DNA of 63,520 nucleotides, the filler included, from Collodictyon triciliatum (Eukaryota): assembly GCA_043381765.1 (NCBI GenBank). It is 4 parts of 4 records of this genome, joined end to end, with 100 filler letters (N's around TTAATTAATTAA, not from the genome) between each part and the next. Parts side by side here need not be neighbours in the genome. Positions count along the whole stretch, not along the records: positions 22,349 to 44,454 come from JBHJMP010001157.1; 3 more parts are not named here. One strand, given 5' to 3'. The first letter of the stretch is position 1; every line of letters begins with the position of its first letter. The notes under the pieces were generated by a model. It did no database searches, had not been told where the DNA came from, and saw only the letters and a program-made list of their open reading frames with translations. Positions 22,349-44,454 of this stretch are shown here, one piece after another. A program made the position numbers and the translations under genes.

Positions 22349-22657
22349 TGATAAAAAGGAGAACAGGGGAAAAAAGGGTGCACAAAGGGAAGGCAGGCAG
22401 TGTGAGCTGTATAAGCTCTTGGAAAGTGACCAGAGGCAAATAATAACTGTATTCGTATTCTCTCTATCCTATATAAACATCACAAGCTATTTTTTTCATT
22501 TATTCGATTCATAAACATCACGAGCTATATTCACGAAAAGGATGGACAACATGTGTGTAGAGTCACAGGTACAGATTGTGCTGTGATTAGTCTGAGAGTG
22601 AAACACGCTGGAAATTAGTTGATGTTTTTTCCCCTTTATTCGAAGGAAACTATTGTT

Positions 22658-22785
22658 TTGTTATTTAGGGGCACTCAAAATGGCATGAATGTTGAGGGCC
22701 GAGGCAAATAGCCGTTAGGGCAGGGCAGGGCTAGGGCTCGGCGAGGGTTAGGGTGGAGCGGACAGGAGGGCCGGTGCCGACGGGG
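22658..22785 (+). repeat. Left copy of diverged ~130-bp inverted repeat
   Basis: 22658-22700 matches the reverse complement of 43600-43642 at 42/43 nt. Similarity continues through TTAGGGTGGAGCG..CAGGAGGGCCG.TGCCGA.GGGG. Confidence 0.9.
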
Positions 22786-22971
22786 CATAGATCGGCCAGA
22801 TTAGGAAAGAGATTGGGTAAAAGGTATGATACCTGAGCAAGTCCGGTAGGTTGGGCAGATTCTTTTTTATTTTATTTTTTTTTGAGAGGGTGGGTAAGGC
22901 GGAAAAAGGAGCGTGTCTGCATGGGTGGCTGAGGTGTTATTATAGGGCAAACGGTCACTGCCATTTTTGGT

Positions 22972-25900
22972 TTATTTATCATCTTTTTTAGTTTTTACAA
23001 AGGCGTAACCTTGGGAAGGACCTACTTTGCCAACATTATGAAATTGTTTATAGTCAAGCGGAGGTTGTTGAGCAAGTCGTGCTGATCTGCGAAGTTCTGT
23101 TAACTGGGATCGAGCTTCTTTTTGTAGAGATTTAGGCCGTCTTTCACGTATACGTGCCGGTGATTTTGATGGAGATGGTGCACGGGACGATGCGGCAGAA
23201 TTTGCTGAATCAGTAAACAATTGTCTTTGTGTATTGATAGTGTTACCTGCGTATACTTGTGACATTCTTGTAATATTGGGTGGAGAATTATCTGTGCTTA
23301 TACTACTAGGTGACGCGCGATTGAGAGGAGAAGGTGATAGACCTGAGTGCATAGGGTGTACACGATATTTACTTACAGAACTAGTTGGTGACGGGTTATA
23401 AGAAGCAACAGATGCTGACCTCGAATGTAATGGATGTCCTAAAACTTGCACTGGACTATTATGTACAGATTGCAGTCTGCTGGAAGGAGCAGATGGATTC
23501 ATTTGTATTTGGGCTTGTAAATCTATCATACGGCGTTGAAGATACGCATTTTCTTCAATTACAGCGTCATACTGCTGTTGAAGTGATTCAAATTTAGTAT
23601 GTACATGGTGATTGTCTGTTTGCAGTTTAGACATATCTGAGATTATTGTTTGTACTCTGGATTCACGAACTATATTTTGCTCATTGATTTTCTGTATTCT
23701 ATTAGTGAGTTCTTGTATTTGTTCCTTAAGATGAGTATTTTCGTTACGTGTAGCTGCCAAGCTACCATTGGCAAAGTCTTCAAGTTCTATTGCTCTTTGT
23801 TGAGCATCCATATCCTGTTGCTTTAAGATGTCTAACTGTATTACTGTTTCGTTGTAAAGCTGAGTTATATTAGACAGTTTATGATCCAGAGCTGTTTTAT
23901 CTGCGATAGTCGCTTGAACGCTGTGAGTAAGATTATTATTGACTAATTGTAATGCATTGACTTTGTTTGTTAAATCTGTGTTTTGTGCTTCTATATCACG
24001 TACGTGTTGTTGTAATTGAGCGTGATCACGTTGTAATGTAGTGTGTCGGCTTCCATCTGACACAATTTTATCTTCAAAGTATGTTAATGCAGAATTTCGT
24101 CTGTTAAGTTCATTTGTGAGAGTGTCTATTTTTTGCTTTGTTTCTTGTAATTGACTCTCTAATCTTGCGTTGGTTGTCGCCATGACGGTCACAGCATTGC
24201 TTGGAACATTTAATTGTAATTTCAATTTGACAATTTCTTCTTGTAATTCTTCATTACGTTCTTGAAGTTCGAGATTTTGATCCTCATATGCAACACGTGT
24301 TGCTTCTGCACGTTCACTAATTTGTTGTTCTTTTGTAATTTGAGCTTTGTAATACCCTTCTAGTCTATTTCGCAGTGAATCGAATTGAGCTTGTGTATAA
24401 GTTTGCTCTTGTTGATTAGGAGGCACAAACTGTCTTTGAGATGATTCTAGGGTATGAATCTTTTGTTGCAAAGATTCTATGATATTTTGTTGTTTTTTAT
24501 TGCTAGCTTGCAATTGGCCTAATTCTATTTTATATTGCATGCGTGCTTGATTTAACTGTTGTTTCTGTTCTTCCAATTTGGGAGCATATACTGAGTGTAA
24601 TGTGTCTGTAACTTCATTTCTGCGTGTCTCAAATTGTTGTATCTGATCTTTTAATTCTGCCTCATGCTGTTGCCGAATAGTGCTAATTTGATTTTTTAAT
24701 GCTTGTATTTCCGTATTGAAAGCCTTTTGTATGCTGATAATGTGGTCATTTCGTTGTTGTAGTTCAGATTGTAAGGCATTAGATAAATTGCTATTTGCGT
24801 TGCCTTGTTGTGTTACTTCTACAACTGATTGTCGCAGTCGTTCATTTTCGGACTGTAATTGTACTATTGATTGATACTGCTGGCCAGTAAAATTTTTGAA
24901 ATTGCTATTTTCTTGGCGTAATTCTTCAAGAGTATTTTGATAAAATGTTGATTGTGCAATATTTGATGCTACAGCAGTTTCTAATTCTTGTTTTAAACGT
25001 CTGATTTCAGCTGTTCTATTTTTTGTATGTGACTCAACTGGCTCTGTAGGTAAGTAAATTTGTTTTCGTGTTTGATCATTTCGTAATTTGTCTAATTCTT
25101 TTTGCAATTCTTCATTGGCTTGTTTTAATTCACGTGCTTCCTTAATTACTTCAGTTTGTTGGTCAAGTGGGACACTGTCTTGCGCATTTTGTCGTATTTC
25201 TGCCAATTTTACTTCATATTGAGCTTTGTTCTGGTCAATTTCGCGTTGTTTTTCGTCTACTTTCTTTTGCAAATTGGCGATGTCTTGTTGAAAAACTGAT
25301 GTCATTTTATCGGTTTCTCCTCTTATTTGATCAAATTTTTTTACCCATTCAGCTGTTGCTTTTCTGACTTCTTCTTCTACTTCTTTTTTCATTTTTTCTT
25401 GAGCACTAGTTAGTTTATTTCTGAATGTATCTGTTGTTTGTTTTACAATTGCAGCTTTTCTTTCGTGCATTTCGTTAAACATTGATTGTTGCCCAGCCTT
25501 AAATTGCTTTTCATGTTCTGCTTTCATTTGTTGTTGTGTTGTTTGCTGCTGTAATTTTGCTGCTGCAATTTCATTTTCGTACCTCCTTTGTTCTTGCTGC
25601 TGTGTATGCATTATTTCCAAAAGTTGTTCTTTGACTTGAGACAACCCGGAGACCATATCGATTCTTTTCTGGTCTAATTGCTGGCCAAAGTTTAGTTTAC
25701 CTGTTAATATTTGAAGTCTTTCATGTACAGATCGTCTTAATTCATCAATGGTCATCTGTCCATGTTGGATAATTTGATTTTGTTCCTCATCTTCCAAAGC
25801 ATCAAAATATTGATCGCCATCGGAATCTTCTGTAGGTGCTTGAGATACAGGGGTCGCAGTTGGTCTTTTTATAATACTTCTTAATGTCGGTGTTGTTGAT

Positions 25901-28575
25901 GGCGGTAATATTTTTTTTGCAGTTTGTATTAATAACTGAAGTTCTTGCGGGGGTGGAATAATTTCAAACCCTTGCTCATCATAATGTTTCTGTTTTTTTG
26001 GAGTTGTGGTTGCAGCAGATGGCGTGGTTGGCTGTAATATGGATTTGGGTGTTTCGTCTACAAATTGTATTGATTTCAAAGGCGATGGATTTTTGAGACT
26101 TATATTAATTTGTTTTACAGGTGTCTTTTGTTTAGACGTTGATTTTCTTTCTGATTTTGGAGAGATTGGGCGATTGGTATTAGTTTGCACAGGTGTATTG
26201 GGTTGTGTTGCTAATTTTTTGGATTTTGGTGTAGAAGTGACTGAATTAGTTTGTGTACGAGACGCAGTCTGTCGACTTTTTAGTTCATTTAGAGTGGCTT
26301 GTAATTGTATAATTTGTTGTTGTTCAGATGCTAACTTTGTTCTTAAATTTTCAGTTTCAATTTGATTTTTATCATATTCTTGCTGAGCTTCACTCAATTT
26401 TTTTTCGTAATCTTGTTGCATAACCCTTATAGCAGATAAATTTGTACTATGATCGTTTTGTTTAGCTGACATAGTTCGTTCTAAATCAGCAATAATAATT
26501 TTATGAGCTTCCAATTCTTGAGATAAAGCATCAGTATTATGTTTGTTTGCCAGAAAATCTTGACGCATTTTCTCTTCTCGTTGAGCATACTCTCTTTCTA
26601 ATGTTGCAATTTGGGTAGTTTTTTCTCTTTCCATTTCATTTTTAATTTTTCCGACCTCTGATCGATATTGACGTTCAAGTTCTTGTTTTTTCTCTTCAAC
26701 TGTCAACAATAACTCTTGCTTTTCTTCTTGTAATTTTTGAATGATCATTGCATTATTTGAATTTAATTGGGTATGACCTAATACATCAGTATGTGTCCTT
26801 CTCTCTAGAAAGTCAAATTTTTCTTGCATTTGACGATTTAATTCTCGCTGTTGTAGTATTTCTGTATAGCCTGTTTGGACCTCTTTTTTCTTTATATCAA
26901 AATCCAATTCCAACTGCTTGTGTTGTCTTGTAACTTCACTTAATCTGGCATTTTGTTCTGCTAGTTGTCGCTCAAAATTTGCATTTTGTTGTCGAAGTTG
27001 GACATTTTGCTGTTGAGTTTGATTATAACTTGACTGCGCGTCTCGCATATTATTTTCCATATGATTGATATGTTCTAATAAAGGTTCGCGTGCTTCTGCG
27101 AGAAGATTTCTTACATATTGTTTTTTTTTTGTTAAATTTTGTGGATTTTCAGGATCATAACCTTCTAAAATTCGTTGGTTCTGTTCTTTAAAATCATCAG
27201 GAAAACTCGAATCCGAATCATCCGAATCACTAGAATCGGCTGATTCATTACCACGGTCAGCCAATATATCATCATCAGACACATTTGAATTATTTTGGTC
27301 ATCTTGATTTTGTGATGGGTTGGGATCATCATGTTGTGCATATGATTGGTCTAATAGATCTGCAACGTTTTCTAATCGAGTTTGTGAGTTTGCTGGTACG
27401 ACTGGTTCTACAGGTCTAAAATTAAATGCAAGAGGATCGGTCTGCATATCTGTATCACGATAGGTTCTAAATTGCATACTTTCTGAAGGCAAAGGCATAT
27501 ATACTGGCTGGGTGTCTCCCAAATCATTTATTATTGGTGAAATTATTGTAGGTTCGGAATTCCTCCGGCGATTTTGTTGTCTAGTTGTAGTGGGCGGCGC
27601 TATAGGCCTATTAACTTGATTTTGTGGAGGCGTGCTCATTTGACGTGGTAAATTTAGCTGATTTATTTGGCCAACAAATGCTTGCGATGCGTTGTCTGGG
27701 TCTTCAGGATCAATATTGCCTCTTGTAACTGCTTCAATATCAACAGCACAGTCGATCATTAAGTCTTGCGCATACAGCCATATGACAAATTCAAATTCTT
27801 CAACAGTGCTGAGTTTTAAATTAAGTGCATTTTCTGGATTTAATTGATATTTTTTTGCACCCAATAAAACTTTATATTTATTCTGCCATTCTTTAATTTT
27901 GTTAAAAACATTGTTTTCTACAAAATATTTGTAATAAATTTTTAATTGATATATTGTCTGAGGGCCTTTAAATTGAAGTTTTGTAAGATATTTAATTACT
28001 AACATGTGTCTGTCGTATATTCTCATAATTTCTTTGTCGACTCCTTTAACTAAATGTGCATAGTTGGGCCGTAACAATTTTGCCGATGTTTGGTGATTAT
28101 CTTCTGGGTCATTTAATTCTGTCTCATCTCGCTGTTGCATTTGTTGTTTAGCTATTTCTGTTTGTTGTTCATTTAATCCTAGTCTTTGACAAGTTTCTTC
28201 CGCAACATTCATTTTATTTTGTTCTGTAATATAACCAGTTGCCCAATGTAAAAATTGTGCATGTTTTAATCGTTGTTGCGCTTGTGCACTAGCTGCACCT
28301 TTAATGTCTTTTTCGGTATCTTTCGTATCTTTATATTCTTCTGAGTAATACATGCGTTCTGTGTCATTTCGAGCATTGTAATGTTTTAGCAGTTGCTGTT
28401 GCTTTTGGTTTTTTAACTCTAATAATTTACTGTTAATTTCTGGTAAGACGTTTCCATAGCCAGGAAAATAAGTTTCGCTAAATTCCAGGCCGGTAGGATT
28501 AATTAAGTGATGTCTTTTGATAGTGCCACCTGGTGGATCTTTAAATCTGTCTCTGATTTTAGTTAACGTAGACAT
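22972..28575 (-). CDS. 1867-aa long coiled-coil protein of the viral element
   Basis: Uninterrupted ORF with a globular-looking N-terminal ~300 aa, two long Q/E/K/L heptad regions separated by a P/T/S/K linker, and an S/P/R-rich C-terminus. Confidence 0.9.
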   Translation of the reverse strand: MSTLTKIRDRFKDPPGGTIKRHHLINPTGLEFSETYFPGYGNVLPEINSKLLELKNQKQQQLLKHYNARNDTERMYYSEEYKDTKDTEKDIKGAASAQAQQRLKHAQFLHWATGYITEQNKMNVAEETCQRLGLNEQQTEIAKQQMQQRDETELNDPEDNHQTSAKLLRPNYAHLVKGVDKEIMRIYDRHMLVIKYLTKLQFKGPQTIYQLKIYYKYFVENNVFNKIKEWQNKYKVLLGAKKYQLNPENALNLKLSTVEEFEFVIWLYAQDLMIDCAVDIEAVTRGNIDPEDPDNASQAFVGQINQLNLPRQMSTPPQNQVNRPIAPPTTTRQQNRRRNSEPTIISPIINDLGDTQPVYMPLPSESMQFRTYRDTDMQTDPLAFNFRPVEPVVPANSQTRLENVADLLDQSYAQHDDPNPSQNQDDQNNSNVSDDDILADRGNESADSSDSDDSDSSFPDDFKEQNQRILEGYDPENPQNLTKKKQYVRNLLAEAREPLLEHINHMENNMRDAQSSYNQTQQQNVQLRQQNANFERQLAEQNARLSEVTRQHKQLELDFDIKKKEVQTGYTEILQQRELNRQMQEKFDFLERRTHTDVLGHTQLNSNNAMIIQKLQEEKQELLLTVEEKKQELERQYRSEVGKIKNEMEREKTTQIATLEREYAQREEKMRQDFLANKHNTDALSQELEAHKIIIADLERTMSAKQNDHSTNLSAIRVMQQDYEKKLSEAQQEYDKNQIETENLRTKLASEQQQIIQLQATLNELKSRQTASRTQTNSVTSTPKSKKLATQPNTPVQTNTNRPISPKSERKSTSKQKTPVKQINISLKNPSPLKSIQFVDETPKSILQPTTPSAATTTPKKQKHYDEQGFEIIPPPQELQLLIQTAKKILPPSTTPTLRSIIKRPTATPVSQAPTEDSDGDQYFDALEDEEQNQIIQHGQMTIDELRRSVHERLQILTGKLNFGQQLDQKRIDMVSGLSQVKEQLLEIMHTQQQEQRRYENEIAAAKLQQQTTQQQMKAEHEKQFKAGQQSMFNEMHERKAAIVKQTTDTFRNKLTSAQEKMKKEVEEEVRKATAEWVKKFDQIRGETDKMTSVFQQDIANLQKKVDEKQREIDQNKAQYEVKLAEIRQNAQDSVPLDQQTEVIKEARELKQANEELQKELDKLRNDQTRKQIYLPTEPVESHTKNRTAEIRRLKQELETAVASNIAQSTFYQNTLEELRQENSNFKNFTGQQYQSIVQLQSENERLRQSVVEVTQQGNANSNLSNALQSELQQRNDHIISIQKAFNTEIQALKNQISTIRQQHEAELKDQIQQFETRRNEVTDTLHSVYAPKLEEQKQQLNQARMQYKIELGQLQASNKKQQNIIESLQQKIHTLESSQRQFVPPNQQEQTYTQAQFDSLRNRLEGYYKAQITKEQQISERAEATRVAYEDQNLELQERNEELQEEIVKLKLQLNVPSNAVTVMATTNARLESQLQETKQKIDTLTNELNRRNSALTYFEDKIVSDGSRHTTLQRDHAQLQQHVRDIEAQNTDLTNKVNALQLVNNNLTHSVQATIADKTALDHKLSNITQLYNETVIQLDILKQQDMDAQQRAIELEDFANGSLAATRNENTHLKEQIQELTNRIQKINEQNIVRESRVQTIISDMSKLQTDNHHVHTKFESLQQQYDAVIEENAYLQRRMIDLQAQIQMNPSAPSSRLQSVHNSPVQVLGHPLHSRSASVASYNPSPTSSVSKYRVHPMHSGLSPSPLNRASPSSISTDNSPPNITRMSQVYAGNTINTQRQLFTDSANSAASSRAPSPSKSPARIRERRPKSLQKEARSQLTELRRSARLAQQPPLDYKQFHNVGKVGPSQGYAFVKTKKDDK

Positions 28576-28807: not shown

Positions 28808-29737
28808 TTAAGATGGCTGTTCTAGCAATTTTCGATCATTTAAAATATCAGAAACAATCGTTTTTGATAGTTCCTTGTCATATTTCTTGAGCTTTTTAGT
28901 CCTTTCTTTCTTTTCTTCCTTAAAATTTGTTTTTTGTTTCACTGCACGAGGTTTTCTAGCAGGTGTTTTTGTTTTCATCGGCTGGTAAGGCCTGACAACA
29001 AAATCTGCTGTTTTGCCGCTGCCATTCATAAAATTCAACGCAAATTGTTCCTCGTCACTGTTCTGCATGTGCTTAAATGAAACGCAACTTTTGTCAATTT
29101 CGCCAGCATGGGATGCAATAAATTCGCTCAGTTGCGTTCTCAACGTTCTCAAACTTGCCTCACGATGATCCACAATAAAAGAATTACCAGCAAAATCGAG
29201 AGGAATCTGGATCTCAAATTTAGGACTCGGAGAAGGTTTTTCGTCTGCGTTCTCATCATGTAGTACCGGGTCGAACAAATACGCTTTTTCATTGCTCTCG
29301 GTCATATCTGGCCATGCATATTGATACCTATCGTCAAGAGCATTTAGTGTGCCGCCAAATCGCGTCAATTGATGCGGATCCGGGGCAAGGATGGGTTTCT
29401 GTTCCATACTAAATTTTTTTACAATCTCCTCATACAGAGACAGGGCGTCTTTTTTTTCTTTTTCTTCAGACTTTTGATTGTTGATCATGCAGACAAGAAA
29501 CGTCAAGAGACACGCCATGTCTTTAAACGATCCTTGGCGGACGCCATAAATCGACACGCCGTAACACTTGGGGCTCAACTCGCCAGTATATTGACACAAA
29601 TACAGGCTTTTTCCGTGCACATTTGTCGCTCGGGGTTTACGAAGGTGCGACAATCTCGCATTCGGCAGGGGGCAATATCCGTCGGCAACTTTCATTCTGT
29701 GTGTATGAACAATAAAAAGATAAACTGTGATACCCAT
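28808..29737 (-). CDS. VLTF2-like (poxvirus A1-type) late transcription factor
   Basis: GSFKDMACLLTF and ILAPDPHQLTRFGGTL resemble the NCLDV VLTF2 motifs G.FCS..C...(Y/F) and PAP....L..FGG.L. An alternative ATG lies at 29695. Confidence 0.6.
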   Translation of the reverse strand: MGITVYLFIVHTHRMKVADGYCPLPNARLSHLRKPRATNVHGKSLYLCQYTGELSPKCYGVSIYGVRQGSFKDMACLLTFLVCMINNQKSEEKEKKDALSLYEEIVKKFSMEQKPILAPDPHQLTRFGGTLNALDDRYQYAWPDMTESNEKAYLFDPVLHDENADEKPSPSPKFEIQIPLDFAGNSFIVDHREASLRTLRTQLSEFIASHAGEIDKSCVSFKHMQNSDEEQFALNFMNGSGKTADFVVRPYQPMKTKTPARKPRAVKQKTNFKEEKKERTKKLKKYDKELSKTIVSDILNDRKLLEQPS

Positions 29738-29765
29738 AATCTTTTATTAGAGATATCATAGAGGG

Positions 29766-29776
29766 CTATATATATA
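29766..29776. promoter_or_regulatory. TATA-like box between divergent genes
   Basis: CTATATATATA lies between the VLTF2-like gene (-) and the penton-like gene (+). Confidence 0.4.
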
Positions 29777-31757: not shown

Positions 31758-31830
31758 CTACAAAAAAAGCTAAAAAAATATGAATTCTAAACCAAAATAA
31801 ACTAACCAAACCCAAAAAAAACATAGGAAA

Positions 31831-34262: not shown

Positions 34263-34450
34263 TTTTTTTTATTCCTGGTATTCCCAATAAAAACCCGTGT
34301 GGTTTTATTTCGCTGATTTTTGGCGGAGGTGTATAATCCTCTATAGCTCTAGGATTCATTATATCAGGGACAGGCAGCACACTCAAATCGATTTTTAATT
34401 GCTTGACGTTCTTTCTGCTGCAGAAACTCATTCTTCATATGTACAATTGT

Positions 34451-34816: not shown

Positions 34817-34854
34817 GTCTATTTATATGTAAAATTAGGAAATAATTTAGTTAT

Positions 34855-35607: not shown

Positions 35608-35680
35608 TCTAAAATGTATTATATAAAAAAAGAAAGAAAAAATTCTAATTTATAAAATAACTTTGAGATTGATTATATAA

Positions 35681-36109: not shown

Positions 36110-37109
36110 TTATTCGTACAGTGCATCTGGCAGCATCCCAGCAAGTGACAACGAGCTTGCATCCTTCACAGAAGAGGGCCATTCACAAGTAATGGAATCG
36201 TTACAAAACATGGATCTAAACAGTGCAAGCAAACAATCTATTCCGTCTCGTCGCAAAAAAACTGTGCCGAAACGTGTGCCAAAACCTATAGGTAAGCGTG
36301 TTGAATTTGACAAAAGTGACGATGTCGAAAGCACAGACTCTGGAATATTCAAACTGCCCCCACTAGAACAAGAAGCAACAGAACCGATTGAAATCGTGAG
36401 GCCTACAACACCCGAACCCAAGCCCCAAGAAGAAGTTTTTTCGTTTTTCAAGAGTTCCAGTCCGTGGAATTATTTCGGTAACGCATTTTCATCGCAATCT
36501 TCCTATCCACCTGCCCATCGAGACAACGATACTGAGAGTGTCAAATCAACAACCAGCAATGATGACAAACCAAAATCATCTAAAAGCAAGAAAAAAAGCG
36601 AGGTCGTGGATGAAACCGATAAAGACGAAGAAGAGGCCAAAAAGAGACAGCTTTTGCATCAAATTGGTCGATATCGAGAAAAGTTTAGCATCAAACTTCG
36701 AAAGCAGCCTACAGATAGAATGTCGGTAAAAGAGCTTGAAGAATTAAAAAAACAAACTATTAGTCAAATTACTGAAAAAGAAGGTTCACGCATTCTAAAA
36801 TCGTTTTATTGTCATGGTCTAACAGCCATCGATCAAGTATCCACAACCATGGGATATGACCATCTTAGAGGACTGGGACAGGTAGGAACTGCAATTGCAA
36901 ATGACGAAGAAAATGAAATTCTTTGGGAACAGTTGGCAATTGAATTTGAAGAATATCTACATGTATCCCCGCAAAAGCGACTGATTTTGTTGACTGCGCA
37001 GATTCTTGCCACTACAGTCCGCATCAATTCCGACCCGCAGTTTGCTGCCAACATAGCACAAGAAATGGGCCAGGCTGAAGAAAGACTTCGCAAGGAATTC
37101 GCCGAATAA
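36102..37109 (+). CDS. Conserved NCLDV-type protein (DUF5767-like)
   Basis: Disordered acidic/Ser N-terminus. LRGLG, ILWEQLAIEF and VSPQKRLILL..ILATTVRIN resemble the 'L.G...FEEL.EKY....PE.RL' signature (recognised by eye). Confidence 0.55.
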   Translation: MTSYSYSASGSIPASDNELASFTEEGHSQVMESLQNMDLNSASKQSIPSRRKKTVPKRVPKPIGKRVEFDKSDDVESTDSGIFKLPPLEQEATEPIEIVRPTTPEPKPQEEVFSFFKSSSPWNYFGNAFSSQSSYPPAHRDNDTESVKSTTSNDDKPKSSKSKKKSEVVDETDKDEEEAKKRQLLHQIGRYREKFSIKLRKQPTDRMSVKELEELKKQTISQITEKEGSRILKSFYCHGLTAIDQVSTTMGYDHLRGLGQVGTAIANDEENEILWEQLAIEFEEYLHVSPQKRLILLTAQILATTVRINSDPQFAANIAQEMGQAEERLRKEFAE

Positions 37110-37133
37110 TTCGTTTTATTATAAAAAATAAAC

Positions 37134-37517
37134 TCAAAATATTTGATGAAACATTTCTGCTGTGAAATCTATTGTAATATCTCTGTACATTGCCACCGTA
37201 AAAAATATAATCGGACCATGTACTTGAAATGAATCATTGTTTGTCATATTCCAGCTTTTTTTGATGATATTTGTTGCGATTGTATTCTGATCGCCATTAG
37301 TTCCGAATACTGCAAACAATCTCAAATCTTGATTATTTACATAAATATTATCAACATGAATTGAAGTTGTATGCCCAATAGATGGATAGACATGGGCCAA
37401 ATACTCGTTTATTACGTCTGTTGGATTGTCTGATGGATATTCTATATATAATTTTCTTGTCGTGACATCAAACTCGTCGCCGTACAAAACTACCACGGTA
37501 ATATAATTATTTTCCAT
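37134..37517 (-). CDS. Hypothetical viral protein (127 aa)
   Basis: Clean ATG ORF. Confidence 0.7.
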   Translation of the reverse strand: MENNYITVVVLYGDEFDVTTRKLYIEYPSDNPTDVINEYLAHVYPSIGHTTSIHVDNIYVNNQDLRLFAVFGTNGDQNTIATNIIKKSWNMTNNDSFQVHGPIIFFTVAMYRDITIDFTAEMFHQIF

Positions 37518-37590
37518 TTCTAAATTATACTATTTTTGATCTTGATAGAGTGCCTAGAATTTACAGCACCTTCGAGTGATATCTTTGGTT

Positions 37591-38300
37591 ATGGAGGAAG
37601 ACATATTGCAATGTAAATATTGTTCTAAATTCGACGTATATTTAAATTTCGAGGGCTATGAATACGTATGTCATTCGTGCGGGAGCGTTCATGCTGTGGC
37701 TATTGGCTGTAGCGCTCATGAATATTTTAAAGATAATTACAATTGGTCTATGGGCAATTTCTACCAAGCAAAGTTTCACTTTAATGAGAGGATGTCTCAA
37801 TGGTGCTGCAACGAGCCTCTCATACCGGATCCTGATGTTAAAATTATTATGGATGCCTGTGCAAAATACGAAAAAGACGGAAAATCAGTCGACTCTAAGC
37901 GAGATATTCAGCGAATACTCCGATCTCTAGGTAGAAAATTCAGCAAAAAATACCTAGAAAAGTGGCTGTCCATACTTCGCAAATACAACAAAAAAATATA
38001 TTTTCCGTGTCCCTCCAATCGTTTAGTGGATTGTTTGAGGTCAAATTTTAATTGTGTTTTGGGTCCGTTTGAAAATAGCAAACCAAAAAATCGCAAACAC
38101 TTGCCCAATTACAACTACATCATACGACAATTATTGTACATAATCGATCCAGAGCTAGACACGATATATTCTTTTTGTTTTCCTTTATTACAAAGCAAAA
38201 AAAAGTTGAAAATTTAGACGAGTTGTGGTTGCCAGTGTGTCAATACAATGGTTGGGAATACAGACAAATGTCAAAAATGAACACAAGCGAGCTATCATAA
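37591..38300 (+). CDS. VLTF3-like (poxvirus A2-type) late transcription factor; C-terminus continues after a -1 shift
   Basis: Zn ribbon CKYC..VCHSCG, Y...FHFNERMSQW, RKHLPNYNYIIRQLL, FPLLQS. The -1 frame after the A8 run (38197-38204) gives VENLDELWLPVCQYNGWEY, matching the family D..W..(I/V)C....W end. Confidence 0.85.
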
Positions 38301-38344
38301 ATAAATAATTCTAATAAATACATAAACAAGAATTACACATCACA

Positions 38345-38530
38345 ATGACTATCCGCACTGAATCTGATTATGGTCTTGATCTGGCTGTTGTGGCTATTGC
38401 TACTTACATCGTAACAGATGATTTCAGAGCCACTGCCCTGCTAACTGTTGTGCATGGACTTGTCCACTACGTTGGATATTCAATGTCCAAACGCTCTAGT
38501 GAAGAAAGTCGTGTTGCTGCTTCGTACTAA
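38345..38530 (+). CDS. Small hydrophobic (two-helix) protein
   Basis: 61 aa with two hydrophobic stretches, followed by AATAAA. Confidence 0.65.
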   Translation: MTIRTESDYGLDLAVVAIATYIVTDDFRATALLTVVHGLVHYVGYSMSKRSSEESRVAASY

Positions 38531-38536
38531 ATAAAA

Positions 38537-39541
38537 CTACTCGTCTTCAATATTATCCATCAAGGTGAAAGATCTTCTGTCTAATTTGTGCATTCTGCTC
38601 TTATCAAAAACGATTTCTCGCTTCATTTCAACTTCTTTTTGCTTCTTGATGTAATGCACATCCCAATATTCTTTACACCCCAGTTTGAACCCTTTTGGGG
38701 GCTCAATGGCTTTCGTGTAAAAAACACATTTTTCTGGATCTGTGGAATTGACAGATAAATTGATAACAAGACAGTGGTTGTCTCTGGTGTAATAATCAAT
38801 AATTGCATCTGCATAATCTGGATGTAGATAAGCCATGTACTGATCGCGAATGTGTTCTCTTTCTCTTTTTGATATCTGTGTAAAAACAAACGCATAATCA
38901 AGATTTGCTCTCATTTTTGGCGTAATCAGTGTTGGATATTGTGTAGTCACAACCAGATGAATTTTGAAATGCCTTCCTGCAATAAACAGTTTTAGAAGCG
39001 TATCACTATATCTGACACCAGAATCTGCCACGGCGTCGTCAAGCATGATTCCACACCAAGGATTGCGGTGTTCGACTGCAGGATTTGTCAAATAAAATTT
39101 TTGTCTATTAATAATCCTTTGTATGAAAAACGAATCAAATTCTTCGTGAATGTATTCTTCCGGAATAATATCTTCCCACGATTTGTTGAGTTTTGCTGTT
39201 GGTGAAATAACCCAAAAAACAGGAATTTGACTCTTGATGTGATCTTGGCTCCATAGATATTTTGTCATGAACGTTTTTCCTGTTCTTCTTTTGCCATACA
39301 GTGCGATTGTGCTGTCAATCTGAATGCCTTTAAAATCAAATAACGCAGGTTTAAAACACATCAGTCTTGCCAATTTGTCTTCCAAAATCAACAAAACATC
39401 AGCGTTAGGATTTATGCTCTCACCGTCGTCTTCATAACTGCGTTTTCTTTTAGTTTCGTTTTCATTTTCTTTCGGTTTTTTTGCAGGTTTGCTGCTTTTG
39501 ACATTTAACGCTTTTGAAATTTCGCTCGAAATTGATGTCAT
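38537..39541 (-). CDS. A32-like (FtsK/HerA) genome-packaging ATPase
   Basis: Walker A GKRRTGKT, Walker B IMLDD, then LFIAGRHFKI, TTQYP and RANLDY. Confidence 0.93.
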   Translation of the reverse strand: MTSISSEISKALNVKSSKPAKKPKENENETKRKRSYEDDGESINPNADVLLILEDKLARLMCFKPALFDFKGIQIDSTIALYGKRRTGKTFMTKYLWSQDHIKSQIPVFWVISPTAKLNKSWEDIIPEEYIHEEFDSFFIQRIINRQKFYLTNPAVEHRNPWCGIMLDDAVADSGVRYSDTLLKLFIAGRHFKIHLVVTTQYPTLITPKMRANLDYAFVFTQISKREREHIRDQYMAYLHPDYADAIIDYYTRDNHCLVINLSVNSTDPEKCVFYTKAIEPPKGFKLGCKEYWDVHYIKKQKEVEMKREIVFDKSRMHKLDRRSFTLMDNIEDE

Positions 39542-39554
39542 GCAATTATATTTA

Positions 39555-39845
39555 TTATTTCATTAGAAATGATAGGTGCGCAATTGGCGAGGACGTCGTC
39601 GATGTCCTAGTGCTTGTGGTTTTTGGCGCTGATTTTACATTCGATTGGCTTTTTGTTCTTTTTACACATTTTGCCTCTTGTTGAGTAGCTGGAGCCGGGG
39701 CAGTCGCTTGGCGAGATTTAACAGCCTGTTGATATGAGGGGGTCAGTCCCACTGGCGATGTCATAGGCCTTGGGCTCATCATGCCATTTTCGACGCTTAC
39801 AAACCTGCCATTTTGTGATCGAGTTGTTGGTTTCCTACCAGACAT
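39555..39845 (-). CDS. Small basic S/T-rich protein
   Basis: 96-aa ATG ORF filling the gap. Confidence 0.65.
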   Translation of the reverse strand: MSGRKPTTRSQNGRFVSVENGMMSPRPMTSPVGLTPSYQQAVKSRQATAPAPATQQEAKCVKRTKSQSNVKSAPKTTSTRTSTTSSPIAHLSFLMK

Positions 39846-39876
39846 TTTTATCTAATTAATTGCTATATTAGAAATA

Positions 39877-40107
39877 ATGGGAAACAAACTACAAAAAGAC
39901 GCATCGTTCAAACACGCGGGGGCTCAACCGAAGCCTGTGAATATGTCCAAATCTCCTTTTATCACAAAGCCAAATTTTGGCTACCAAGAAGACGACTATG
40001 CACAGAAAAAGTTAAACACGCCAGACAAGGTGCACGGTCATTTTATGAAACTGCGTATTGACGATCAGACAAGAGCCATGCTGCACAGAAAAAGCATTCG
40101 CAAATAA
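39877..40107 (+). CDS. Small protein with possible N-myristoylation (MGNKLQK)
   Basis: 76-aa ATG ORF followed by AATAAA. Confidence 0.65.
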   Translation: MGNKLQKDASFKHAGAQPKPVNMSKSPFITKPNFGYQEDDYAQKKLNTPDKVHGHFMKLRIDDQTRAMLHRKSIRK

Positions 40108-40114
40108 ATAAAAA

Positions 40115-42406
40115 TTAAGCAAATCTATGTTGAAAATCCCAATGTTTCTGTATAGCTGCTCGTGTTAAATCGCTGTCGTGTCTTTGTGGGTACTCGTATC
40201 CAACATGAAATCCTTCTACATTTAGATGATCGATACTCCATATAATCTTGTTTTGTAACAAACTTAACAATATCATTTTTCTTGCCATTGCTGTGGATGG
40301 TCTTTTTCCATCCATGGGATAATATTTTTTGGGATCCAAATTTAATGCAGCCGTGTAAGCGTTCATCATGACATTTACCCCACATTCTGTATCGTTGTCC
40401 TGACGATACAAAGAATCGTGCATATCAATATGTTCATATTGTTTCCAATTATCGAAATATTTATCTGTACCGAAATGCCTTTTGCATTCTGATTGAAAGT
40501 AAAATCCTAACTGTCTAACAGCGAGAGTGCTAGCACTCACAGTACGATTAAAATCTTCTGTATCGACAGGTTCCAAATTGTCATAATATCGCAATTGCTT
40601 GTTTTCGTTGTCAATCACAAACAATGTCCAGTGATTTCCATTTATATGACACGGTATAAAGACCTTTTTGTATGCAAAAATGTTTGTTTTTAGTGTAATA
40701 TTATGCATCATTTCAGGACAAAAAGGACGATTGCTTTTTGCTTTCATTAACATATAAAAAAATGCCGTGTTAAATGTAAAACACATGGGAGTCATGTAAT
40801 TTGTTTGCGATTCGTCCGAGTACATTTTTTGGCAAATTAATATCAAAAATGCAGTAATCACATTTCCGTCAATCCAATTATAATTTAATAGCGTGCTTGC
40901 ATCTTCGTATGTTAAAACTGCTTGTTGTCGATCAAACTGATATGCCAATACCGGAGGATCTTCTTTAGTTGACTTTTTCTTCCACGATTGCATATATTGG
41001 TTCAATTTTTTTATGTGCTCGGCAGATAATTTGCCAAACACACACATCTTATCGTCCCAGTTCGGATTGCCGCGTTGATTGGTGTCTACATATTTCATTT
41101 CATATGTAAATTTACTTGGCTGCTGACCTGGTTTTAACAATTGATTACGTAAATAATGATCGGCCCAAAACCAGCTTGTAGTATAATATATATTATGCCA
41201 AAATTCTTTTTTATCTTGTTCAAAATCTTCTTCCTCGTCCTTACTTTTGACTATATCTTCATTTACATCTTTTGATGTGTCCAATTCATCGGCGAACACC
41301 TCTTCCACGTCACTCTCTGCTGGGCCAACATCAGGTTCATTTTCATCAGCCATTTCCGCATCAGTTGTTTCTTCGACCTCTGTTAGGTCATCTTCGGCTT
41401 CTATATGCACGTACGGCTCCGCACTTGCTTCCGATTGTTCTGTTTCTTCATCTGGTTCTTCAGGCGCAAAACTTACACTGTTTCGTGATTGAATTTCTTG
41501 ATCAGATTCTTCACTTGACGAAGATATTTCGTATATGCTCGCCCGTGACATATTGCTTGGCGTGCTGATTGCGCTAAATGAGGTATTTCGAGATGACGTA
41601 TTTACATTATCAAATCCATGCGAGTCTAAGCTACTGTCCATTTTAGATGATTTTTTCTTTGTATTAAATCGCGACCGCGTTCGCCCGTCATCAGGAATCA
41701 CGTCTTCTTGATGTCTGTACACACGGCGCGGCACCGTATTTTTCATTGTCTCCTTCACAGCAATTCTTGTGCCATAATTTCCGCGTTTGCTTCCTTCCGG
41801 CTTGTAATCAGCATAAATTTCTACTGGTTTATCTTTACTAGCATATATATTTTTATCTGCTACAACATATGCCGCTTTTGGATTCCTTGAACGCGACGAC
41901 ACAGCAAAATGTGCATTTTCATGCGAATTTTTTGAATGCTGCACGTATCGGCCCACATCGGTGTCAGTTTTTCTGGCATCAATGAATTTCCCATTCGGCA
42001 ATTTTATCAAATATTTGCCTTGTTTGTGATCATACCGTTGATCTTTTTGGCTTTTTGTCAGAATTTCTCCAGTGTATGGAGCAATAACTTCTCCTTCTTT
42101 AACATTTTCCGTTACATACAGCCCTTTTGGATCATGTTTGTGCACGTGGCTGTCTTTCACGCGCAATCCATACTGTTCTTGCAAATGCACCCAGCAAAAT
42201 GGAAAAGTAGACACACACTTTTGACCGCACCTCTTCCCATTCTGGTTCACCGCTTTACAGCTGTTGCCTTTATTGGGCTTCAGAGGCTGCCTGCTGTCGT
42301 TTACATCAGTGGCCGGTTCCGATATGTGTTGCAAATCAAACAGCGCTTTGTTATGATGGTGGCTCCTTCTTTTCAATTTGTTATACACTGACAACATTTT
42401 TATCAT
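40115..42406 (-). CDS. Zn finger - SET domain - acidic linker - Ulp1/SENP (C48) cysteine protease fusion
   Basis: Zn finger C.A....G.RC...C.....FCWVH. SET motifs KGLYV, PYTGE, IDA, GRYVQHS and EIYADY. C48 motifs NWIDGNVI, FNTAFF, IPCHINGNHWTL, YYD and QDNDTECG. Confidence 0.88.
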   Translation of the reverse strand: MIKMLSVYNKLKRRSHHHNKALFDLQHISEPATDVNDSRQPLKPNKGNSCKAVNQNGKRCGQKCVSTFPFCWVHLQEQYGLRVKDSHVHKHDPKGLYVTENVKEGEVIAPYTGEILTKSQKDQRYDHKQGKYLIKLPNGKFIDARKTDTDVGRYVQHSKNSHENAHFAVSSRSRNPKAAYVVADKNIYASKDKPVEIYADYKPEGSKRGNYGTRIAVKETMKNTVPRRVYRHQEDVIPDDGRTRSRFNTKKKSSKMDSSLDSHGFDNVNTSSRNTSFSAISTPSNMSRASIYEISSSSEESDQEIQSRNSVSFAPEEPDEETEQSEASAEPYVHIEAEDDLTEVEETTDAEMADENEPDVGPAESDVEEVFADELDTSKDVNEDIVKSKDEEEDFEQDKKEFWHNIYYTTSWFWADHYLRNQLLKPGQQPSKFTYEMKYVDTNQRGNPNWDDKMCVFGKLSAEHIKKLNQYMQSWKKKSTKEDPPVLAYQFDRQQAVLTYEDASTLLNYNWIDGNVITAFLILICQKMYSDESQTNYMTPMCFTFNTAFFYMLMKAKSNRPFCPEMMHNITLKTNIFAYKKVFIPCHINGNHWTLFVIDNENKQLRYYDNLEPVDTEDFNRTVSASTLAVRQLGFYFQSECKRHFGTDKYFDNWKQYEHIDMHDSLYRQDNDTECGVNVMMNAYTAALNLDPKKYYPMDGKRPSTAMARKMILLSLLQNKIIWSIDHLNVEGFHVGYEYPQRHDSDLTRAAIQKHWDFQHRFA

Positions 42407-42479
42407 ATGTCTAGATTTTTATTAACACTACATATGCACCCGATTAATACAAAAAGCTTTTTATTTATAGATATATTAT

Positions 42480-43469
42480 TTATGAAGAACCACCAAATAA
42501 ATTTGCTGGTCGTTGTGGAGAGACAGTTCTTCCAACATTATATGGTTGTGCATACCTTACATTGTATCCTCCCTGTCCTGAAAGTGTTGGCCCGTTTTGT
42601 CCCGCAGGTTGGAGGGGACTAAAAGGGTTTGTAGTTGTATTATTATGAACACGTGCAGATACATTCATAGTACGGTTCGGATTATCTGAGATATTCACAG
42701 AATTATTTGCAGACAAAGCTCCTGTCCTAATAGGTTCACGTCTAATTCCTTGCATCATCTGCTTAAATGTTGACTCATTGATGTTACCTCCAGTGGGCGC
42801 TGTGAATTGAGAATGATGCAGTGGATCTGTTGCACTAGCTAATTTCTGTGTCGGTTTGATATAATCATCAAAGAATCTAGGAGCAAACATCCCCTTAATG
42901 TATTGACGATTTCTCACGTCTACATGTTGTTGCATAGGCTCCATGAAATTTGTATTATACAACGCTGGTTCTATGCGTCCTGTAGCCATTGCATATGCCG
43001 TTAGCACATCTTCCTGGTTTCGTATGCCCATCAAATTCATTCTAGCAATTTTTTTCTGAAAATCAAGCGACTCGTCAATAGCTTTTATTCTTCGGTCAAA
43101 CCATCCCGGGTTAATTTCGCGCGACAATTTAAGTTGCGCTGGGTCGCGGTGATCAAAAATCGTTGCATACCAAGCATCAAAATTGCGCATTTCTTGTTGT
43201 TTCGCCTTGTCATACAAATAATCAACTGTTCCTTCGTCAAGATTTCTCTGACCCCATGTTTGTTGATCCAAGGATAATTTTAACGCCATTTTCGATTCTT
43301 TGTCAATGTCGCGATTGTCTTCGAATTTTGCCGGATAATACGCATCTTGGGCTCTCAATTCTTGCGTTTCTAGATCTACCGGATCGATATGGCCAAGAGT
43401 CTGGACGGGTGCTGACCCTTCCACCTCTTTTCGGCTCATTGTCTTTCCCAATGATTTATATGAATTCAT
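42480..43469 (-). CDS. Hypothetical viral protein (329 aa from ATG 43469)
   Basis: Long ORF with a helical core and an N/P/G-rich tail. The ORF-track TTG start runs into the repeat. Confidence 0.8.
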   Translation of the reverse strand: MNSYKSLGKTMSRKEVEGSAPVQTLGHIDPVDLETQELRAQDAYYPAKFEDNRDIDKESKMALKLSLDQQTWGQRNLDEGTVDYLYDKAKQQEMRNFDAWYATIFDHRDPAQLKLSREINPGWFDRRIKAIDESLDFQKKIARMNLMGIRNQEDVLTAYAMATGRIEPALYNTNFMEPMQQHVDVRNRQYIKGMFAPRFFDDYIKPTQKLASATDPLHHSQFTAPTGGNINESTFKQMMQGIRREPIRTGALSANNSVNISDNPNRTMNVSARVHNNTTTNPFSPLQPAGQNGPTLSGQGGYNVRYAQPYNVGRTVSPQRPANLFGGSS

Positions 43470-43513
43470 TGTAATTAACTTAATTAAATCAAAATTAGAA
43501 ATTTTATACTTTA

Positions 43514-43642
43514 CCCCATCGGCACGGCCCTCCTGCGCGCTCCACCCTAAATCCTTGCCCAACCCTAGCTTACGCCCTGTCTTACCGGCTACTCACGCAG
43601 GCCCTCAACATTCATGCCATATTGAGTGCCCCTAAATAACAA
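43514..43642 (-). repeat. Right copy of diverged ~130-bp inverted repeat
   Basis: Its reverse complement aligns to 22658-22785. Confidence 0.9.
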
Positions 43643-43932
43643 TCTTCCTCTCCTTTTTTAGTTTTTGGTTTTTCTCTTGCTGGTTTTTTTGATTGAGGTT
43701 CATAAGTCTGTGGTTTAGTTGGAGGTGTTCTTGTTGTTTGAACTGTCCTTGATGATTCAGCTGAACCTTGCTCTATCATTTTTGTTGCAATAACTCTCAT
43801 CAATTGATATTTATTAAGTTGCCCTTCCGGTATTTTTAATTCTCTAGCTTTCTCTTTCCAATATTCAAGACTTCTGTTTTCTCTATTTAATTCATCATAT
43901 TTTTTTTGTACACGATCTTCTCTGCTACTCAT
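43612..43932 (-). CDS. Small basic protein (106 aa)
   Basis: ATG ORF whose last codons lie in the repeat hairpin. Confidence 0.7.
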   Translation of the reverse strand: MSSREDRVQKKYDELNRENRSLEYWKEKARELKIPEGQLNKYQLMRVIATKMIEQGSAESSRTVQTTRTPPTKPQTYEPQSKKPAREKPKTKKGEEDCYLGALNMA

Positions 43933-43964
43933 ACTTTAGTTTATATAATTTTCTTGGCCATAAT

Positions 43965-44324
43965 ATGATTGTAGACGTACGAAAAGGTGCAAGAGGTGTC
44001 GGTCGATTTCTAACAAGACATACAGAAGGCGCATTACAAAAACTCAAACGATTGGACGACGCATATTCAGATTTGAATCGAGCATCCGGTGGCTTAGTCG
44101 AGTTGGGCTTGCAAAGCACAGGAATCAAACCAGCTTTTCAAACAATAGCCAATCCTTTGGTCAGCACAATTACCGCAGCCAATTATTTGGGCCGTGGTCT
44201 TTCAACCTTGGGAAATACTGAATTTAAATTAACAAATGCCCGGGCAATAGGTTCAGGAATTCAAGACCTCGGTCAGGCTTATGTCTTGGCATCAACAGGT
44301 CGAGGTTTTCGGCCTATGACATAA
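43965..44324 (+). CDS. Gly/Ala-rich protein with amphipathic N-terminus (119 aa)
   Basis: ATG ORF containing VRKGARGVGRFLTRH. Confidence 0.7.
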   Translation: MIVDVRKGARGVGRFLTRHTEGALQKLKRLDDAYSDLNRASGGLVELGLQSTGIKPAFQTIANPLVSTITAANYLGRGLSTLGNTEFKLTNARAIGSGIQDLGQAYVLASTGRGFRPMT

Positions 44325-44454
44325 TCGCCGCCGCCCCCTCCAACAACTTTCCGCCTCCGCTTGATGATCGGGTGGTGGAGGTTGAGGCAAAAACCCCGGG
44401 CTCCAATCGCCTATATTTTTCTATTTTATTTTTTTAAAATTTTAAAATTTTAAA

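Follow-up and report, generated by a model that had tools for sequence, protein, structure and literature searches.

What kind of genetic element is represented by a gene-dense 22-kb contig that lies in the genome assembly of the protist Collodictyon triciliatum (GCA_043381765.1) and encodes a viral-type packaging motor without a recognizable major capsid protein (MCP) gene? The contig, JBHJMP010001157.1, occupies positions 22349 to 44454 of the analyzed window, a stretch of 63,520 nucleotides in which parts of four records are joined. It is exactly one contig of 22,106 bp, flanked on both sides by N44-TTAATTAATTAA-N44 spacers. In the reading that we favor, and which we consider probable though far from assured, it is a defective, latent, or endogenous unit-length copy of a small double-stranded DNA virus-like element from a giant-virus-like branch with an FtsK/A32-type motor; infectivity is not proven. 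A preliminary description had seen in it a divergent, probably undescribed small virus or endogenous element akin to the class Mriyaviricetes; the viral, giant-virus-like nature of the DNA was confirmed, the class membership was not.

Translated with the standard genetic code, the contig yields open reading frames (ORFs) of 1867, 763, 387, 335, 334, 329, 309, and 250 amino acids (aa) and about ten smaller ones, which lie on both strands with short spacers and are apparently intronless, whereas ORFs are merely scattered over the neighboring contigs of the window, where TPR matches, weak LRR matches, and runs of low complexity were seen. The contig is gene dense and apparently intron poor, as had been proposed. 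Alternative genetic codes were tried and rejected, since stop reassignment brought no improvement and the standard code already yields long ORFs. In GC content (37.1% versus 36.3% and 37.1%) and tetranucleotide use (r = 0.945 and 0.887), the contig resembles its neighbors. BLASTN found no match between its nucleotide sequence and the rest of the window, and the contig indeed lacks host flanks.

Packaging ATPase and late transcription factor

The genome-packaging ATPase (Table 1) supports the assignment to a giant-virus-like branch. Taken alone, the 334-aa ORF matched Pfam Pox_A32 weakly (E = 0.022, 14.7 bits; cut-off, 22.8 bits); 8 of 10 ATPase family members matched this profile at E ≤ 0.1, and the homologues in two metagenome loci described below, L003 and L009, cleared the Pfam cut-off. 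The contig's ATPase matched the ATPases of loci L003, L002, and L005 at E of about 1e-23. Its AlphaFold model, computed from 16 sequences, reached a predicted local distance difference test (pLDDT) value of 70.6 and a predicted template modeling (pTM) score of 0.67, and shows a long helix at the C terminus and an N-terminal extension of ~60 aa. Of the 50 BFVD matches that were listed for this model, 39 were named, 36 of these from giant viruses and 3 from other viruses or phages, and 11 were unnamed; no virophage, polinton, or adenovirus name was among the 50. The giant-virus matches listed were mostly annotated as A32 or packaging ATPases. The best fold matches were A32-like ATPases of the Nucleocytoviricota (Medusavirus, Pandoravirus, Mimiviridae, Iridoviridae, and Marseilleviridae), with E values from 5.9e-18 for the top match, the Medusavirus A32-like ATPase, to about 1e-10 among the matches listed. 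Template modeling scores were about 0.5 to 0.6 and sequence identities 13 to 27%; the sequence is very divergent. The best solved structure in the PDB was the STIV B204 packaging ATPase (E = 1.7e-8), followed by FtsK, whereas the ATPase profile returned nanobody noise and a weak FtsK match from the PDB sequences. The family's Pox_A32 matches, the two homologues above the cut-off, and the giant-virus fold neighbors support the A32-type assignment made in the preliminary description.

The VLTF3-like factor scored at the border of Pfam Pox_VLTF3 (E = 2.2e-5; 24.6 bits versus a cut-off of 25) and also matched Zn_Ribbon_TF (E = 5.6e-5). Its call, likewise proposed before, is backed by 30% identity (E = 3.6e-13) to a protein of locus L002 (L002:1702-2619) that itself exceeds the Pfam cut-off with 27.6 bits; a search of PDB sequences returned calmodulin matches, i.e., noise only. 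A VLTF2-like factor, which had also been reported, was not recovered, though one may have escaped: at E ≤ 0.1, the Pfam search linked none of the ORFs to a further family of late transcription factors, and in the mriyavirus study VLTF2 was detectable only via alignment-based HHpred (PMC11253617).

A promoter-like element upstream of eight genes

Eight of 18 genes, namely those for the helicase, ORF142, ORF335, the VLTF3-like factor, ORF127, the ATPase, ORF96, and ORF329, are preceded by the element AWTTCTAR (Table 1), which stands 40 and 44 nt before the start codons of ORF142 and ORF335. Of its 10 copies on the contig, 8 lie within 100 nt upstream of a gene and on the coding strand. In a placement test that compared 3,360 permutations of its letters, AWTTCTAR was the only one with eight upstream copies (mean, 0.55), a contrast that is somewhat inflated because the element was derived from the same upstream regions; the only other permutations with at least six upstream copies were overlapping variants of AWTTCTAR. 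Over-representation in the window was rejected (21 copies found versus 22.3 expected), and only the placement is unusual. In the related metagenome loci, AWTTCTAR occurs in upstream windows of up to 100 nt in the outside group closest to the contig, L002 (4 of 15), L003 (4 of 14), and L004 (3 of 20), and is nearly absent elsewhere (L008, 1 of 26; L010, 1 of 29; L011, 0 of 13; L005, 0 of 7). The pseudogene described in the next section has TTTTCTAG at position −25.

A ninth copy, in the region of 38307, stands 38 nt before a 61-aa ORF (38345-38530, plus strand) with a mildly positive codon-usage score; this ORF may be an extra small gene.

A split helicase gene and a pseudogene

The D5-like superfamily 3 (SF3) helicase gene runs through three frames (Table 1). 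Its 387-aa ORF matched Pfam DUF5906 with E = 9.2e-16 and 59 bits (cut-off, 27.6), and PHROG primase-helicase families were matched with E values down to 6.8e-21, all via their C-terminal helicase part, which bears out the SF3 assignment. In relatives the helicase is a single unbroken protein of 582 to 663 aa (P0036 to P0040); the helicase domain of these full-length proteins (DUF5906) begins after about residue 230 according to PHROG matches, and for their N-terminal part no family match was obtained. One of them, P0036 (648 aa), is 92 to 95% identical to each of the three pieces in tblastn and 97% identical to the 387-aa ORF in BLASTP. Both frameshifts are located at A7 runs, at 32283 and 33342. 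Frameshifted helicase genes are also described for some mriyaviruses (PMC11253617). Eight other genes contain 47 homopolymer runs (at least 6 nt, or at least 5 for G/C), none of them frameshifted, although this comparison is partly circular, as the genes were grouped by being broken or intact. The 5.6-kb gene of the 1867-aa protein contains 19 such runs and zero frameshifts.

Between 29740 and 31300 the contig has no long ORF, and codon usage flagged 30400-30783 on the plus strand as coding. An exhaustive HMMER search with a 127-aa piece of this region retrieved three proteins: P0031 (283 aa), which is 77% identical to the piece over its residues 149 to 265, P0032 (281 aa, 43% identical), and P0033 (152 aa). 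When P0031 was aligned to the contig with tblastn, the region passed through frames 2, 1, 0, and 1, with ATT at the start methionine of P0031, an in-frame TAG at a glutamine, at least three frameshifts, and a diverged C terminus. Frameshifts coincide with an A6 run at 30078 and an A7 run at 30408, whereas ATT and TAG are base differences rather than run-length differences; for this reason, and because relatives keep the gene intact, we regard it as a true pseudogene. Reading TAG as glutamine was ruled out, since the same gene has frameshifts and ATT in place of the relatives' start methionine. A relic gene had been noted before, and it is indeed present; the label "penton-like" given to it is a guess. 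No Pfam or PHROG match was found for the 283-aa family, its PDB sequence search returned only noise, and a search of the protein Atlas with P0031 gave nothing usable (best score, 0.82). The AlphaFold model of the family, from four sequences, is β-rich with a pLDDT of 41.4, too low to use. The gene possibly encodes a capsid protein.

Decay is unevenly spread over the contig: defects abound in one short gene, while ORFs of 5.6 and 2.3 kb are intact. This speaks for the loss of one gene from a genome that is otherwise largely under selection, or for a recently immobilized copy. It is because no MCP gene is recognizable, the 283-aa gene is dead, and the helicase gene is frameshifted that we describe the element as defective, latent, or endogenous.

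A broken core gene was also seen in a related environmental contig, in which the ATPase is split into three consecutive ORFs (L011:6798-8020).

Relatives in public data

A word-indexed protein search with the ATPase returned seven matches, with identities of 99, 80, 75, 71, 70, 67, and 64%, all of them named "hypothetical protein" or nameless. The contigs that carry ATPase relatives measure 21,580 bp (P0003, 71% identity), 22,290 bp (P0004, 67%), 23,252 bp (P0025, about 64%, in the same 90% cluster as P0005), 25,966 bp (P0030, about 60%, in the same 90% cluster as P0006), 33,206 bp (P0005, 70%), and 83,121 bp (P0009, 99%, an alternative-start form of a 99% identical copy). Judged by these sequences, the contig is one member of a tight, unnamed family with contigs near 22 kb in several public assemblies.

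No relative emerged from IMG/VR, whether it was scanned with the ATPase by itself or with its alignment. A scan of metagenomes for two motifs of the family identified 11 loci (L001 to L011). L001 covers 1.5 kb of a 73% relative; the other loci show 25 to 30% ATPase identity. They form two groups, L002/L003/L004 and L007/L008/L010, the latter together with L009 and L011. The ATPase is common to 10 of the 11 loci, the VLTF3-like factor is shared with L002 (the examined sequence of L003 and L004 ends short of that region), and the helicase is shared with L003. Homologues of ORF329 were found by BLASTP and phmmer in L002, L004, L005, L007, L008, and L010 (E = 1e-13 to 1e-17); the family comprises proteins of 262 to 331 aa with a conserved stretch of ~110 aa, has no Pfam match, and gave only noise in a PDB sequence search.

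The gene row L008:14897-20114, also found in L007 and L010, consists of a 239-aa protein, an ORF329-like protein, a 168-aa protein, an MCP (470 aa), a 204-aa protein, and a weakly A22/RuvC-like protein. The ORF329-like gene thus lies two genes from the MCP gene and next to that of the 239-aa protein, and, as in mriyaviruses, a weak Pox_A22 (RuvC-like) match stands beside an MCP of the type found in nucleocytoplasmic large DNA viruses (NCLDV; Capsid_N, E = 3.6e-4; Capsid_NCLDV, E = 0.023). Judging from the gene numbering of PMC11253617 (Table 1), this row resembles the order PDDEXK, Mriya_1, MCP, RuvC of Pleurochrysis endemic virus 2. From the published description of Mriya_1, a core orphan of variable length with a conserved domain of ~100 aa, and from the gene order of L008, ORF329 may correspond to Mriya_1. 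The nearest relatives fetched look mriyavirus-like, with the NCLDV-type MCP and the weak A22/RuvC match in L008, and a relation to such viruses, as initially suggested, is to this extent upheld.

Parts of the 31-mers of a 10-kb stretch occur in 20 public runs from 15 studies, at shares of 0.27 to 0.42 in 14 DNA or unlabeled runs and of 0.07 to 0.17 in six metatranscriptome runs; none contains half of them or more. The runs are labeled freshwater, lake, aquaculture, aquatic, or food-production metagenome, and three have no organism label. These shares indicate close relatives or partial copies, and are leads only to such sequences rather than to the same genome or its expression.

Unit length or fragment

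Three contigs, including the one studied here, measure 21,580, 22,106, and 22,290 bp, i.e., they agree within 0.7 kb although their lineages are 67 to 71% identical in the ATPase; a fourth measures 23,252 bp. In addition, an inverted repeat lies near both ends of the contig (Table 1). Because of the nearly equal lengths in three lineages and this repeat, a discrete unit of ~22 kb is favored. The two arms are ~86% complementary, and in each the nine terminal codons of an ORF106-type gene lead into a G-rich tract with TTAGGG-like units. The repeat looks like a remnant of longer terminal inverted repeats; that such longer repeats are present now was rejected, as the end alignment score outside the 128 nt equals that of shuffled sequence.

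In the repeat core (22700-22785 and 43514-43600), the TTAGGG-like units are degenerate (GGGCA, GGGCTA, and GGGTTA). The core might be telomere-like or G-quadruplex-forming and linked to genome ends or integration.

Several observations weigh against the favored reading. The 83,121-bp contig bears proteins that are 97 to 99% identical to those studied here (the ATPase, the unbroken helicase P0036, and an ORF127 homologue), and the 70% ATPase relative is located on 33,206 bp; the true unit could exceed 22 kb or lie embedded in other DNA. The two ends of the contig have no shared repeat and no direct terminal repeat, so that circularity and true termini lack support. The helicase frameshifts, lying in A7 runs, could be assembly errors. 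The metagenome loci were found via the family's own motifs and do not form an unbiased set of nearest neighbors, and the neighbors of the ATPase come from a fold ranking rather than a labeled tree. Capsid_N and Capsid_NCLDV (Pfam) were matched by none of 36 ORF translations, and the MCPs of L008, L007, and L010 had no counterpart on the contig in BLAST, phmmer, or tblastn searches; that a packaging ATPase is encoded while a capsid gene was not found points to an incomplete genome. Finally, no ORF matched HUH/Rep, RuvC/Pox_A22, or PDDEXK/YqaJ-type families in Pfam or PHROGs, searches that for HUH fall short of the sensitivity of HHpred and structure comparison as applied in PMC11253617; in L008, the same test did yield the weak Pox_A22 match.

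The ORF250 family and the 283-aa family were also tried as homologues of the L008 MCP and rejected (hhalign probability, 0.1 each), and the unassigned stretches of the contig are too short for a gene of at least 1.3 kb. Given the limited sensitivity of the searches, one of the orphans may yet be a capsid protein of a compact or very divergent type.

These points bear on the best of the alternatives, namely, that the contig is a fragment making up about half or less of the 35- to 85-kb genome of a mriyavirus-like virus or small giant virus, or of an extended endogenous viral region, with the genes for MCP, penton, HUH, RuvC, and PDDEXK elsewhere. The absence of the mriyavirus capsid and recombination genes from a contig that does encode a packaging ATPase and a maturation-type protease would be explained in this way, and the larger contigs of relatives, including those from the metagenome scan (28 to 39 kb; 38.9, 31.8, and 28.4 kb, examined in part), fit a longer genome. 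Random breaks, however, are unlikely to produce such similar lengths across lineages, an inverted repeat that holds a gene end lies near both contig ends, and tblastn and Pfam searches found nothing viral in the neighboring contigs of the window. We consider a fragment unlikely, though a serious contender.

A bolder variant of the unit-length reading holds that the contig is a complete giant-virus-derived element of ~22 kb that has no double jelly-roll gene, resides as an episome or endogenously in freshwater protists, and relies either on a compact capsid encoded by the 283-aa or 250-aa family or on a helper's shell and late transcription via a promoter with a TCTA core. This we think doubtful. 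If true, it would provide a cellular host for a lineage of giant-virus relatives of the size of Polinton-like viruses (PLVs) that has had no known hosts.

Affinity to known small viruses

Mriyaviruses are defined by an NCLDV-like MCP, an A32 ATPase, VLTF3, RuvC, PDDEXK, a helicase-bearing multidomain protein, an HUH endonuclease, and a genome of 35 to 45 kb; the HUH endonuclease is reported for all Mriyaviricetes and VLTF2 for all gamadviruses and some yaraviruses, and direct terminal repeats are frequent (PMC11253617). Three of these defining features, the A32 ATPase, the borderline VLTF3, and a C-terminal helicase, were found on the contig, and five, the MCP, HUH, RuvC, PDDEXK, and the genome size, were not; the contig was therefore not filed in the Mriyaviricetes, and the membership toward which the preliminary description pointed is unsupported. 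The likeness is nevertheless evident: the Mriyaviricetes (Yaraviridae and 'Gamadviridae') also have an A32-type ATPase and VLTF3 and no DNA or RNA polymerase, and their SF3 helicase is likewise C-terminal in a larger protein without a detectable primase match in its N-terminal part (PMC11253617). Apart from its 22 kb and the lack of a direct terminal repeat, the contig differs in that Mriya_48, Mriya_50, Mriya_51, and VLTF2, in addition to the four proteins named above, were not detected. It also bears a SET-Ulp1 fusion and a 1867-aa coiled-coil protein that are outside Table 1 of that study, in whose main text the word "protease" does not occur (PMC11253617).

A more recent description provides further counterparts. 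It reports a continuum from PLVs of 15 kb to mriyaviruses, spanning 15 to 45 kb and including groups of 20 to 30 kb (10.64898/2026.06.19.733378). Like the contig, its 'Zoravirus' (VC102, VC134, and VC218) and 'Zephyrvirus' (VC123/VC126) groups combine an NCLDV-like A32 ATPase, 20 to 30 kb, and a primase-SF3 helicase, and about half of the Zephyrvirus members have a very large ORF, comparable to the 1867-aa ORF of the contig (10.64898/2026.06.19.733378). The groups are defined by MCP genes, none of which is recognizable on the contig; moreover, the contig has no lipase domain in its large ORF, no Mriya48, and no integrase (10.64898/2026.06.19.733378). Zephyrvirus, described there as of freshwater lake origin and without a known host, may be the group within or beside which the contig belongs. 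Small VLTF3-bearing relatives of mriyaviruses have been known since 2026 (10.64898/2026.06.19.733378), and the contig is a new variant among them. In the literature searched, no description of the contig's own family was found.

Endogenous counterparts exist as well, alongside which an earlier study of 'NCLDV-like dwarf viruses' is reportedly to be placed. Mriyavirus-like regions occur in glaucophyte and pavlovophyte assemblies and, like the contig, lie in a eukaryote assembly, have host-like composition, and contain shortened or broken ORFs (10.1101/2025.04.19.649669). These algal regions were found via the MCP and taxon-specific markers, some of them in host contigs, whereas the contig stands alone, without flanks and without an MCP (10.1101/2025.04.19.649669).

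The contig resembles Polintons, PLVs, and virophages in size, in having a cysteine protease and an FtsK-type ATPase, and in the inverted repeats close to its ends. The protease matches Ulp1/C48 (E = 2.1e-12) and can be set beside the adenain-like protease of Polintons and PLVs by class only. These features and the SF3 helicase would suit an ordinary PLV or Polinton (Preplasmiviricota) that has acquired VLTF3, all the more as VLTF3 is reported in about 30% of two PLV-sized lake-virome clusters, VC123/VC126 (10.64898/2026.06.19.733378); the use of VLTF3 to separate the contig from PLV-sized viruses, as had been proposed, thus rests on a dated premise. Such an origin is nonetheless improbable. 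In Pfam and PHROGs there was no match to protein-primed DNA polymerase B (pPolB) or another polymerase, to a retroviral-type integrase, or to a tyrosine recombinase; the 50 fold matches listed for the ATPase include 36 giant-virus names and zero from virophages, polintons, or adenoviruses; and the family-specific ORF329 is shared with contigs bearing an NCLDV-type MCP. The earlier view that the contig is not an ordinary Polinton and belongs to a giant-virus-like branch is therefore retained on the basis of the missing pPolB and integrase, the ATPase fold neighbors, and the VLTF3 homologue.

A giant-virus-dependent, virophage-like element would use its helper's late transcription via the TCTA-core element and perhaps receive its capsid in trans. 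In AWTTCTAR, TCTA is flanked by A/T and precedes eight genes at the tabulated distances, and the contig has neither polymerase genes nor a recognizable MCP. Mavirus genes carry the same TCTA motif. TCTA is the late promoter motif of CroV and ChlorV (PMC13196603). On the other hand, the contig encodes its own VLTF3-like factor, TCTA comprises just 4 bases and its likeness may be due to chance, no giant-virus sequence is present in the window, and the ATPase is of the giant-virus and not the virophage type. We rank helper dependence after a Polinton-like origin, as very improbable. A non-viral origin, i.e., a host genomic region or an assembly artifact, is scarcely credible despite the neighbor-like GC content and tetranucleotide use, given the gene-dense and apparently intronless organization, the A32 ATPase, VLTF3, and D5-like helicase, the shared promoter-like element, and the relatives that form separate contigs in other assemblies.

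Possible mode of action and significance

On the reading as a defective, latent, or endogenous unit-length copy, the gene content suggests how an intact version might work. As neither a DNA nor an RNA polymerase is encoded, such a version would depend on host enzymes in the nucleus for replication and transcription, with the helicase opening the DNA for the host polymerases. Genes bearing AWTTCTAR would be driven by the VLTF3-like factor, of which this element could be the target. A preformed shell would be filled with DNA by the ATPase and matured by the Ulp1-like protease, and the SET domain might modify host chromatin. The copy at hand could not accomplish all of this.

Small viruses between Polinton-like and giant viruses bear on the origins of the latter, and several such groups are described without a known host (10.64898/2026.06.19.733378). 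The contig ties one lineage of this kind to a protist genome assembly, with relatives in several public assemblies. It combines three oddities: a packaging motor without a recognizable capsid gene, the SET-Ulp1 fusion, and the sharply placed promoter-like element. If endogenous and decaying, it would be a dated record of infection; if episomal, a persistent small relative of giant viruses.

Other genes of the contig

The coordinates of the main features are compiled in Table 1.

Table 1. Features of contig JBHJMP010001157.1, with positions counted along the window
Feature	Position	Strand	Remarks
Whole contig	22349..44454	.	22,106 bp; GC 37.1%; no tRNA and no Rfam family found in scans
Inverted repeat, left arm, 128 nt	22658..22785	+	309 nt from left contig end
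1867-aa protein	22972..28575	-	Very long coiled coil after a globular N-terminal region; tail basic and Ser/Pro-rich
309-aa orphan (ORF309)	28808..29737	-	Cys-bearing N-terminal part, Lys-rich tail
Pseudogene of 283-aa β-rich protein	29966..30790	+	Intact in relatives
145-aa orphan	31320..31757	+	C-x4-C-x2-C-H motif
Upstream element AWTTCTAR	31783..43502	.	29-75 nt before start codons of 8 genes
D5-like SF3 helicase gene	31816..33727	+	Three frames: 31816-32292, 32265-33356, 33344-33721
121-aa protein	34451..34816	-	One hydrophobic segment, Lys-rich repeat tail
250-aa orphan (ORF250)	34855..35607	-	Fast-evolving
Two overlapping orphans, ORF142 (142 aa) and ORF335 (335 aa)	35681..37109	+	ORF335 with acidic N-terminal half
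127-aa orphan (ORF127)	37134..37517	-	Exact sequence present in public data
VLTF3-like transcription factor, 208 aa	37591..38217	+	N-terminal TFIIB-type zinc ribbon
A32/FtsK-type genome-packaging ATPase, 334 aa	38537..39541	-	Walker A, GKRRTGKT
Two small basic ORFs in opposite directions	39555..40107	.	96 aa minus (ORF96), 76 aa plus
SET-Ulp1 fusion, 763 aa	40115..42406	-	SET (aa 95-190), acidic linker, Ulp1/C48 cysteine protease (aa 521-702)
329-aa conserved orphan (ORF329)	42480..43469	-	One conserved domain of ~110 aa, variable length
Inverted repeat, right arm	43514..43642	-	812 nt from right contig end; overlaps 3' end of ORF106
ORF106 (minus) and ORF119 (plus)	43612..44324	.	Right end of contig

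Pfam searches with 20 ORFs identified meaningful families in 4, only sub-threshold noise in another 4, and nothing in 12. The abundance of orphans had been recognized correctly, their share being in fact well over the half that had been estimated.

Both domains of the 763-aa fusion protein scored above their Pfam cut-offs (Peptidase_C48, E = 2.1e-12; SET, E = 6.3e-8). In its translation, His (in NGNHW), Asp, Gln, and Cys (in TECG), candidate catalytic residues, stand in the order typical of this protease family. Cysteines are clustered within residues 48 to 80 of the same protein (C-x9-C-x3-C-x6-C), where DUF5763 (E = 0.087) and a primase zinc finger (E = 0.064) were faintly matched. A DUF5767-like protein, listed in the preliminary description, was not matched, the nearest being this DUF5763 hit at the N terminus of the fusion protein.

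The 1867-aa ORF gave only sub-threshold Pfam coiled-coil matches and a codon-usage score of 0.32, though it belonged to the score's own training set. For the 309-aa orphan a single weak phmmer match was obtained (L011:5496-5921, 1.5e-4), and neither it nor the 145-aa orphan matched a Pfam or PHROG family. The gene of the 121-aa protein holds 33-nt direct repeats (family D2). ORF250 has only two clusters of homologues, at 98 and 59% identity, and no match in Pfam, the PDB, or PHROGs and no usable one in the protein Atlas. The 96-aa and 76-aa ORFs have codon-usage scores of 0.155 and 0.173, and a homologue of the latter adjoins the ATPase in L001. ORF106 has the highest codon-usage score of the contig (0.36), and the exact sequence of ORF119 is present on five public contigs. 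A gap of 0.7 kb is empty except for a very basic, Cys-bearing ORF of 53 aa (34101-34259), whose codon-usage score of 0.33 is among the highest of the contig.

The fourth contig, which is cut by the window end, contains a Lys-rich open frame of 261 aa (62501-63286) that has no Pfam match and is unrelated to the viral contig in the searches run. A neighboring contig encodes a TPR_12 repeat protein (20870-21469; E = 7e-12) with a tail of ~80 aa made up of Asp, Glu, and Gly. The neighboring contigs are rich in similar low-complexity coding sequence, and their ends display poly-A/T and microsatellite runs.

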